A DNA stretch of 29,879 nucleotides from the IMG/VR virus record IMGVR_UViG_2537562092_000001, positions 1-29,879 of that record. One strand, written 5' to 3'. This DNA comes from a virus (Duplodnaviria; Heunggongvirae; Uroviricota; Caudoviricetes). Under the pieces are notes generated by a model, which saw only the letters and a program-made list of their open reading frames with translations, was not told where the DNA came from and searched no databases. Shown piece after piece: positions 22,049-24,315 of this stretch. Position 1 is the first letter of the stretch. Every line of letters begins with the position of its first letter. Position numbers and translations under genes: made by a program.

Positions 22049-23467
22049 ATGCCTATTCAGCAACTTCCGCTTATGAAAGGTGTCGGCAAAGACTTTCGAA
22101 ACGCCGACTATATCGACTATCTGCCAGTGAATATGCTGGCTACACCCAAAGAAATCCTGAACAGCAGCGGATATCTTCGCTCATTCCCGGGCATTGCCAA
22201 ACGTTCTGATGTGAACGGTGTATCGCGCGGTGTCGAGTACAACATGGCGCAGAATGCTGTTTATCGCGTGTGTGGTGGCAAGCTGTACAAAGGCGAAAGT
22301 GAAGTCGGTGATGTTGCCGGAAGTGGTCGCGTATCAATGGCGCATGGTCGGACATCACAGGCGGTAGGCGTTAATGGTCAACTGGTCGAGTATCGCTATG
22401 ATGGCACGGTTAAAACCGTCTCAAACTGGCCTACAGACAGCGGATTCACGCAGTATGAGTTAGGCTCAGTACGCGACATTACGCGCTTACGTGGGCGTTA
22501 TGCGTGGTCAAAAGACGGCACTGATTCATGGTTTATCACTGACCTTGAAGACGAATCACATCCTGACCGATACAGCGCACAATATCGCGCAGAATCGCAG
22601 CCTGACGGCATCATCGGCATCGGCACATGGCGAGACTTCATCGTCTGCTTTGGTTCATCGACTATTGAATATTTCTCCCTTACTGGCGCAACCACCGTTG
22701 GTGCCGCTTTGTATGTTGCACAGCCATCGCTGATGGTGCAGAAAGGTATTGCCGGAACCTACTGTAAAACTCCATTCGCTGATTCCTATGCGTTCATCAG
22801 CAATCCGGCAACAGGTGCGCCGTCTGTATACATCATCGGCTCCGGTCAGGTATCACCAATCGCCAGCGCGAGCATTGAGAAAATTCTCCGCTCCTACACT
22901 GCTGATGAACTGGCTGAGGGTGTGATGGAGTCTCTGCGATTTGATGCTCATGAGTTGCTGATTATCCACCTTCCGCGCCATGTTCTCGTGTACGACGCAT
23001 CTTCAAGCGCCAATGGTCCGCAATGGTGTGTGTTGAAAACTGGCTTGTATGACGATGTGTACCGCGCTATCGACTTCATTTACGAAGGCAATCAGATAAC
23101 GTGCGGCGATAAGCTGGAATCCGTGACCGGGAAATTGCAGTTCGATATCAGCAGCCAGTACGACAAGCAGCAGGAACACCTGCTGTTTACTCCGTTGTTC
23201 AAAGCGGATAACGCCCGGGTGTTCGACCTTGAGGTTGAATCTTCAACTGGCGTTGCGCAGTACGCTGACCGCCTGTTCCTCTCTGCAACCACTGACGGCA
23301 TCAATTACGGGCGTGAGCAGATGATTGAGCAGAATGAACCGTTCGTTTACGACAAACGCGTTTTGTGGAAGCGAGTAGGGCGCATCAGGAAAAATGTCGG
23401 TTTCAAATTGCGCGTTATCACGAAGTCACCTGTCACTCTGTCAGGCTGCCAGATAAGGATTGAGTAA
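22049..23467 (+). CDS. Tail hub protein, P22 gp10-like
   Basis: 472-aa ORF, the same length as P22 gp10, in the conserved position between gp4- and gp26-like genes. Confidence 0.8.
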
Positions 23468-24315
23468 TGGCGGATTCGAATCTCAATGTGCCGGTAATCA
23501 TCCAGGCTACGCGGCTCGATACATCAGTCCTTCCACGCAATATCTTCTCGCAGTCATATCTGCTGTACGTTATTGCACAGGGTACTGATGTTGGTAACGT
23601 GGCGAACAAGGCCAACGAAGCAGGGCAGGGCGCTTATGACGCACAAGTCAGGAACGATGAGCAGGATGTGATTCTGGTCGATCACGAAATTCGACTGGCA
23701 TCAGCTGAAGCGAAGATTCAGGACCACGAAACAAGGATCACTAACGCAGAATCGGCGATAGTCGGCCTTGATTCCCGATTAACGACAGCAGAAAACGATA
23801 TTGATTATCTGACTGATGAAGTTATCGCCATTCAAAACACGCTTTCAGACCATGAAACGCGCATTGATGCTCTGGAGTATGCCACTACTCGCAAAAAGTC
23901 AGAGGTTGTTTACTCTGGCGTATCTGTAACCATCCCGACAGCGCCGACCAACCTTGTTAGCCTGCTGAAAACGCTCACGCCGTCATCCGGGACGTTGGCA
24001 CCATTCTTCGACACTGTTAACAACAAGATGGTTGTGTTCAACGAGAACAAAACCTTGTTCTTCAAGCTGTCGATCGTCGGGACGTGGCCCAGCGGAACCG
24101 CCAACAGGTCAATGCAGCTAACCTTTTCCGGCTCTGTTCCTGATACGCTGGTCAGCAGTCGTAATGCGGCGACAACAACCGACAACATCCTGTTAGCTAC
24201 ATTCTTCAGCGTGGATAAAGACGGATTTCTTGCCACAAATGGCAGTACGTTAACCATTCAGTCGAATGGTGCGGCGTTTACTGCCACAACCATCAAGATA
24301 ATCGCGGAGCAGTGA
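23467..24315 (+). CDS. Tail needle, P22 gp26-like N-terminus with Sf6/HK620-type C-terminal knob
   Basis: N-terminus [68 protein letters not shown] closely matches P22 gp26 ([43 protein letters not shown]...). A heptad coiled-coil follows, then a ~140-aa Ser/Thr/Asn-rich C-terminal domain absent from P22 gp26; 282 aa overall. Confidence 0.85.

Follow-up and report, generated by a model that had tools for sequence, protein, structure and literature searches.

Tail needle gene and the remnant that carries it

The stretch of DNA analysed in this work (the window, 29,879 nucleotides) carries a tail needle gene within an Sf6-like late-operon block. The features of the needle, the block and its borders are listed in Table 1. 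The needle open reading frame (ORF) runs from ATG to TAA and encodes 282 aa, and the ORF listing and direct translation confirm the gene as it was given in the initial annotation of this DNA. The needle gene overlaps both of its neighbours, at its start with the stop of the upstream 472-aa hub gene (ATAA...TAATG context) and at its stop with the start of the 151-aa gp14-like gene downstream, a tight packing that is typical of a phage late operon. The needle gene lies directly between the hub gene and the gp14-like gene of a P22-like late operon, and the gene order is the same as in Sf6: Phage_stabilise (hub), needle, DUF2824 (gp14-like), P22_gp7, and Inj_translocase. Two ORFs are antisense to the needle gene, at 23910-24257 (-) and 24258-24635 (-), and were treated as chance ORFs.

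Table 1. Features of the needle locus with their positions in the window, strand and supporting evidence.
Feature	Position	Strand	Evidence
Left truncation: chimeric ORF (transposase HTH and scaffold gene tail)	19710..20072	+	Pfam HTH_Tnp_1, residues 3-69
Sf6-like late-operon block: scaffold 3' fragment, coat, gp6, adaptor, hub, needle, gp14-like, three ejection proteins	19866..28837	+	Nucleotide identity to Sf6
Tail hub gene (Sf6 gp8 / P22 gp10 homologue; plugging partner of the needle)	22049..23467	+	Pfam Phage_stabilise
Tail needle gene (almost certainly the Sf6 gene 9 orthologue)	23467..24315	+	ORF listing and translation; 282 codons plus stop
Putative hub-plug (virion-binding) domain, residues 1-60	23467..23646	+	Identity to Sf6; P22 gp26 structure matches
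Putative trimeric coiled-coil shaft, residues 61-140	23647..23886	+	Heptad pattern; AF2 helix
Divergent shaft patch, residues 71-126	23677..23844	+	Identity drop relative to Sf6
Knob (TNF-like jelly-roll, putative trimer), residues 141-282	23887..24312	+	Sf6 identity; PDB; Pfam PF16532
Tailspike head-binding domain fragment, ~81 codons, followed by an IS insertion	29239..29481	+	Pfam Head_binding
IS2/IS3-family transposase interrupting the tailspike and running off the window	29493..29879	-	NCBIfam IS2 TnpB 4.2e-85; Pfam rve_3

The whole needle protein is matched by PHROG 1030 (phrog_1030, 'tail needle knob') at 5e-134. Its RefSeq name is 'tail needle knob protein' (WP_000785555.1), which is found in a 100% identical E. 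coli locus. From 12438 to 29879 the window matches the E. coli DETEC-P829 chromosome at 100% identity, and PGAP names the product 'tail needle knob protein' there as well. When the needle and the genes around it were scanned against NCBIfam, only the transposases and the Arc-like protein gave matches and the phage proteins gave none; the phage families are absent from that library and were covered by Pfam and PHROGs.

The late block is 96.4% identical to Sf6 at the nucleotide level over 8976 bases, which supports the earlier placement of the element in the Sf6-like and not the P22-like structural subgroup. All nine ORFs of the block are intact and equal in length to their Sf6 counterparts. Amino acid identity to Sf6 is 98-100% for eight virion proteins of the block, among them those of the coat, adaptor, hub, and ejection apparatus, and only the needle is lower, at 86.5%. 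The hub matches Pfam Phage_stabilise at 1.7e-301 and shares 466 of its 472 residues with Sf6 gp8. As judged from the sequence, the needle gene almost certainly encodes an Sf6-type tail needle, orthologous to gp9, that is carried as an intact passenger in a 9.6-kb defective Sf6-like prophage remnant. None of the results speaks against this identification.

The first position with homology to Sf6 is 19866, which falls within the scaffold gene. In the chimeric ORF at the left border, an HTH_Tnp_1 N-terminus continues in frame into the final ~68 codons of the Sf6-type scaffold gene, and this ORF marks the left deletion junction of the prophage. PGAP annotates the same ORF as an incomplete phage protein adjoining a partial transposase. 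In place of the left part of the prophage there is IS debris, and upstream of the block, where the sequence is made up of IS fragments and island genes, neither a late promoter nor an antiterminator is left. At the right border, the tailspike fragment covers positions 1-84 of the 113 positions in the Pfam Head_binding profile. The fragment tracks the Sf6 tailspike with few differences up to residue 81 ('...GQIAK') and diverges afterwards; PGAP also records an incomplete tailspike followed by an IS3-family transposase. The initial annotation regarded the P22-like N-terminus of the tailspike as being at odds with an Sf6-like needle. The Sf6 tailspike carries the same head-binding domain, and therefore no conflict exists between the two.

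The terminase, portal, lysis, and regulatory genes were not found in the window, and most of the scaffold gene is also lost. The complete gene set of a functional (inducible) P22-like prophage is not present in the window. The element, which had been described as a prophage, is a 9.6-kb defective prophage remnant with an IS-disrupted tailspike and not a working prophage. It has no terminase, portal, or complete tailspike and is therefore unable to build a virion alone.

Several other features were observed in the window. The receptor-binding, O-antigen-cleaving body of the tailspike is missing from the window. A small Arc/Mnt-like DNA-binding gene at 28857-29150 (-), the remains of an immI-type region, separates the tailspike from the last ejection gene, and PGAP names its product 'Arc family DNA-binding protein'. 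IS elements pile up at 4887-6357 and 11959-19866 (IS30-like, IS3, IS66 TnpA, TnpB, and frameshifted TnpC, and a Mutator-family fragment), and a GntR/FadR-type regulator is located at 13677-14348 within the IS-dense stretch. Positions 1-4117 hold a CP4-type genomic island module that consists of a YeeU-family antitoxin, DUF987, a RadC-like JAB protein, an antirestriction protein, DUF932, and a truncated Ag43-like autotransporter beta-domain. An intact 1164-aa autotransporter at 7385-10882 (-) has a beta-domain, an AC_1 autochaperone, a PATR repeat, a VirG insertion domain, and a pertactin-like region. The DETEC-P829 locus, although otherwise identical, lacks the region at ~4450-12438 of the window and has in its place a group II intron together with different IS fragments.

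Plug, shaft, and knob of the needle

The identity counts were obtained from a four-way alignment of the needle, Sf6 gp9, HK620 gp26, and P22 gp26. The needle and Sf6 gp9 are 282 aa each and are collinear with zero indels, and 244 of the 282 residues are identical. The exact counts by segment are 70/70 for residues 1-70, 20/55 for residues 71-125, and 154/157 for residues 126-282. The lower identity of the needle to Sf6 is thus explained by a deficit that sits entirely in shaft residues 71-126. Outside this patch, the codons that differ between the needle and Sf6 comprise 35 synonymous and 2 nonsynonymous codons.

The N-terminal residues 1-60 are identical to Sf6 gp9 at 60/60 positions, to HK620 gp26 at 58/60 (97%), and to P22 gp26 at 49/60 (82%). 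Over residues 1-70, identity is 100% to Sf6 gp9 and 81% (57/70 positions) to P22. A search of all PDB chains matched residues 1-144 to the P22 gp26 and HK620 needle structures 4LIN, 5BU5, 2POH, 3C9I, and 8EAP, where the P22 gp26 structures 2POH, 3C9I, 4LIN, and 8EAP match the N-terminal part of the needle with E from 1e-27 to 1e-49. The needle has a gp26-type N-terminal hub-plug domain that is followed by a heptad coiled-coil shaft. The function of this domain as a plug of the hub channel would follow from published work on tail needles (PMC9728967). The structure matches bear out the P22-like character that had been assigned to the N-terminus, while the description of it as near-identical to P22 gp26 was overstated.

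The shaft exhibits nine consecutive heptad 'a' positions (77, 84 ... 133) that are all Leu, Ile, or Val in both the needle of the window and Sf6. Single-sequence AlphaFold2 (AF2) predicts one long helix at residues 74-139 with pLDDT of 84-92 at its centre. Within the patch, 36 of the 56 codons are nonsynonymous relative to Sf6, amino acid identity is ~36%, and DNA identity is 48-53% as compared with 95-98% in the flanks. In the sequence comparison with Sf6, residues 71-126 stand out as the sole mosaic segment of the needle, and this true mosaic patch was missed in the initial annotation. The heptad register is kept across the patch despite the sequence change. The kept heptad pattern and the presence of the patch in an intact-looking prophage suggest that the patch would be compatible with assembly.

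No phage donor of the shaft patch was found among the sequenced phage genomes; the complete genomes that come closest reach only ~50% identity over residues 66-138. The sole close phage match, at 95.9%, is a 2.3-kb unannotated fragment named 'Escherichia phage ECO26.1 3-1'. The needle allele is common in E. coli chromosomes: ~900 E. coli genomes have a match to the needle, and in 318 records the match extends over at least 80% of the gene. The identified carriers of the shaft allele are prophages and not a sequenced donor phage. That the shaft varies among knob-bearing needles is already on record; the HS1 shaft shares 67% identity with that of Sf6 and has five additional heptads (Leavitt et al., 2013; PMC3741392).

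The C-terminal residues 141-282 share 140 of 142 positions with Sf6. In the search of all PDB chains, residues 131-282 match the knob of the Sf6 'gene 9 protein' (3RWN) at 150/152 positions (E = 3.6e-90) and the HS1 knob (4K6B) at 151/152 positions (E = 1.1e-89). Pfam PF16532 (Phage_tail_NK, 'Sf6-type phage tail needle knob') covers residues 109-282 at 6.6e-109 with 361.7 bits against a cutoff of 27. These matches agree with the earlier identification of a knob-bearing needle of Sf6 type. The Ser, Thr, and Asn content is 34.5% in the C-terminal 142 residues as compared with 20.7% in residues 1-140, and this domain does not align to the P22 or HK620 tip, in line with the initial annotation, which described it as Ser/Thr/Asn-rich and not present in P22 gp26. 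The L-glutamate contacts and the S-R-N triad of the phosphate site have been defined in the Sf6 and HS1 knobs (Leavitt et al., 2013; PMC3741392), and all seven residues (E146, K200, S248, D250, and S231-R232-N233) are found at the same positions in the needle.

Pairwise alignment and structure prediction of the knob region had both been suggested as checks on the initial annotation. The alignment placed the C-terminus with Sf6 and not with P22 or HK620, and no meaningful alignment to the P22-type tip (P22 gp26 residues 141-233) was found in P22 or HK620 gp26 beyond about residue 150. The AF2 model has a confident shaft helix, and its mean pLDDT is 55 with most of the knob below 50, which is too poor for a fold search. 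The fold of the knob (TNF-like jelly-roll, presumably trimeric) is settled by its 99% identity to 3RWN and 4K6B and not by the AF2 model. Its identity to two crystal structures makes an AF2-based fold search of the knob unnecessary.

The needle protein would be a homotrimer that forms a three-part fibre. Its N-terminal hairpins would build a quasi-sixfold plug within the channel of the hub, a trimeric coiled-coil shaft would occupy the middle, and the C-terminal 142 residues would fold into a TNF-like jelly-roll knob with three L-glutamates at the subunit interfaces. In a working phage, the needle would reach the outer membrane first and would be expelled at infection. Its tip would modulate the rate of DNA delivery and not host specificity, as chimera experiments have shown that the knob does not set host specificity and that changes of the tip alter the DNA delivery rate (PMC3741392). 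P22 was shown to tolerate the knobs of both Sf6 and HS1 (Leavitt et al., 2013). Trimerisation, plug function, and a role in DNA delivery are thus expected for this needle by analogy to the Sf6, HS1, and P22 literature. The needle of the window would enter a particle only if a co-resident or superinfecting phage used the gene or recombined with it.

Relatives in E. coli and the origin of the locus

The copies of the needle gene are identical in five complete E. coli genomes. The needle of the O114:H49 strain 90-9280 (WP_001388949.1) shares 281 of 282 residues with that of the window, including 56/56 in the patch. It belongs to an argW prophage with the same integration site (tRNA-Arg next to intS). 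This prophage appears complete, with terminase, portal, scaffold, and full tailspike, whereas the remnant in the window has none of these in complete form. The coat and ejection genes of the 90-9280 prophage are not Sf6-like, and only its hub-plus-needle segment matches the window (12578-14851 against 22043-24317, 94.8% nucleotide identity). This suggests that the hub and needle were exchanged together as a unit.

Other E. coli genomes carry related loci in different states. The argW remnant of HKUOPY1 (needle at 20001-20849) has the same allele with a G53-to-stop mutation, which places a premature stop at codon 53. This remnant is more eroded, with the hub, the gp7-like gene, and the tailspike all truncated. 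The O157:H7 genomes match only 23843-26118 of the window, which is ~2.3 kb around the 3' end of the needle gene. The O26 prophage of 97-3250 was considered as a carrier of the shaft allele of the window and was rejected; this Shiga-toxin strain of E. coli has an intact argW prophage with the Sf6 shaft allele. Leavitt et al. (2013; PMC3741392) reported the knob in 69 of 164 P22-like genomes, as well as over 100 E. coli genomes in which a small P22-like remnant contains an Sf6-type needle gene.

The nine-gene block could have been kept by host selection, either as a recombination reservoir for superinfecting P22-like phages or for a domesticated function, and not be a young remnant that awaits decay. 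We consider such retention unlikely. The nine full-length ORFs, 98-100% identical to Sf6 apart from the needle shaft, have persisted despite the IS destruction on both flanks, and the identical copies of the needle gene in five complete genomes are in line with retention. Hub-plus-needle segments in otherwise unrelated P22-like prophages also indicate that the module does get exchanged. However, the sister remnant HKUOPY1 carries the same allele with a stop codon beside truncated neighbours, and the ~2.3 kb kept in O157:H7 completes a graded decay that is the prediction of neutral loss. The block also has only IS fragments in place of a late promoter or antiterminator, and the synonymous bias relative to Sf6 reflects the history of the gene in active phages and not selection in the remnant.

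A more specific form of this proposal is somewhat less probable still. The IS-bounded nine-gene block might serve in E. coli as a reservoir of needle-shaft, hub, and ejection alleles for incoming P22-like phages through homologous recombination, and the patch at residues 71-126 would then be a selected variant that affects DNA-delivery kinetics and not the product of neutral drift. We mention it as a speculation.

The needle could also be a novel chimera, in which the N-terminus of a P22-type phage recently recombined with the knob of an Sf6-type phage at this locus, as the initial annotation had implied. Its N-terminal 137-144 residues do match the P22 gp26 structures strongly and its C-terminus has no P22 counterpart. 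This origin is nevertheless very improbable, as the N-terminus is that of Sf6 gp9 itself (70/70, as compared with 81% for P22), the whole protein is collinear with Sf6 gp9, and the fusion of a gp26-type N-terminus to a knob predates the locus, being present in 69 of 164 P22-like genomes (PMC3741392). That the long C-terminus is a divergent P22 tip on a P22-type needle hardly deserves consideration, since the N-terminus and coiled-coil heptads are shared with P22 but residues 141-282 have no meaningful alignment to the P22 or HK620 tip and match PF16532 and, at 99%, 3RWN and 4K6B.

The Sf6-type needle in a defective remnant, which is the preferred reading, is one more copy of a well-characterised protein for which the Sf6 and HS1 knob crystals, the Sf6 tail cryo-EM, and the P22 chimeras are available, and the annotation pipeline already names the gene correctly. 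The architecture of Sf6-type needles, their annotation, and their occurrence in defective E. coli remnants are already known. The gain lies in corrections: HK620 has no knob, a P22-like N-terminus is a universal trait of this phage group, and the element is a dead remnant and not a prophage. The only mosaicism at the locus is the shaft patch, which moves together with the hub gene between P22-like prophages that are otherwise unrelated and provides a small case of a known module exchange.

Comparison with known needles

The needle of the window is similar to Sf6 gp9 (NP_958185.1; knob 3RWN) in its length, gene order, neighbours (98-100% amino acid identity), and L-glutamate and phosphate contacts. 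It differs from Sf6 gp9 in the shaft, where residues 71-126 are only ~36% identical with the register kept. Sf6 is a viable phage, whereas this copy of the needle resides in a defective E. coli remnant. The needle shares Ala270 with the knob of the E. coli prophage HS1, where Sf6 has Ser. The HS1 needle has 317 aa and 16 shaft heptads (PMC3741392), whereas that of the window has 282 aa and the shaft length of Sf6 and P22.

P22 gp26 (2POH/3C9I) and HK620 gp26 (5BU5) have a homologous plug domain, a coiled-coil shaft, and the same position after the hub gene. Both differ from the needle of the window in having 233 aa and a C-terminal tip that is unrelated to the knob. HK620 had been grouped with Sf6 as knob-bearing, but its gp26 aligns end to end with P22 gp26, and HK620 typifies subtype A of the P22-type tip (Leavitt et al., 2013; PMC3741392). 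The P22-like remnants of the EC4113-1 type (Leavitt et al., 2013) likewise keep an Sf6-type needle gene. The remnant in the window is larger than these, with ~9.6 kb and nine intact genes bounded by IS elements on both sides.
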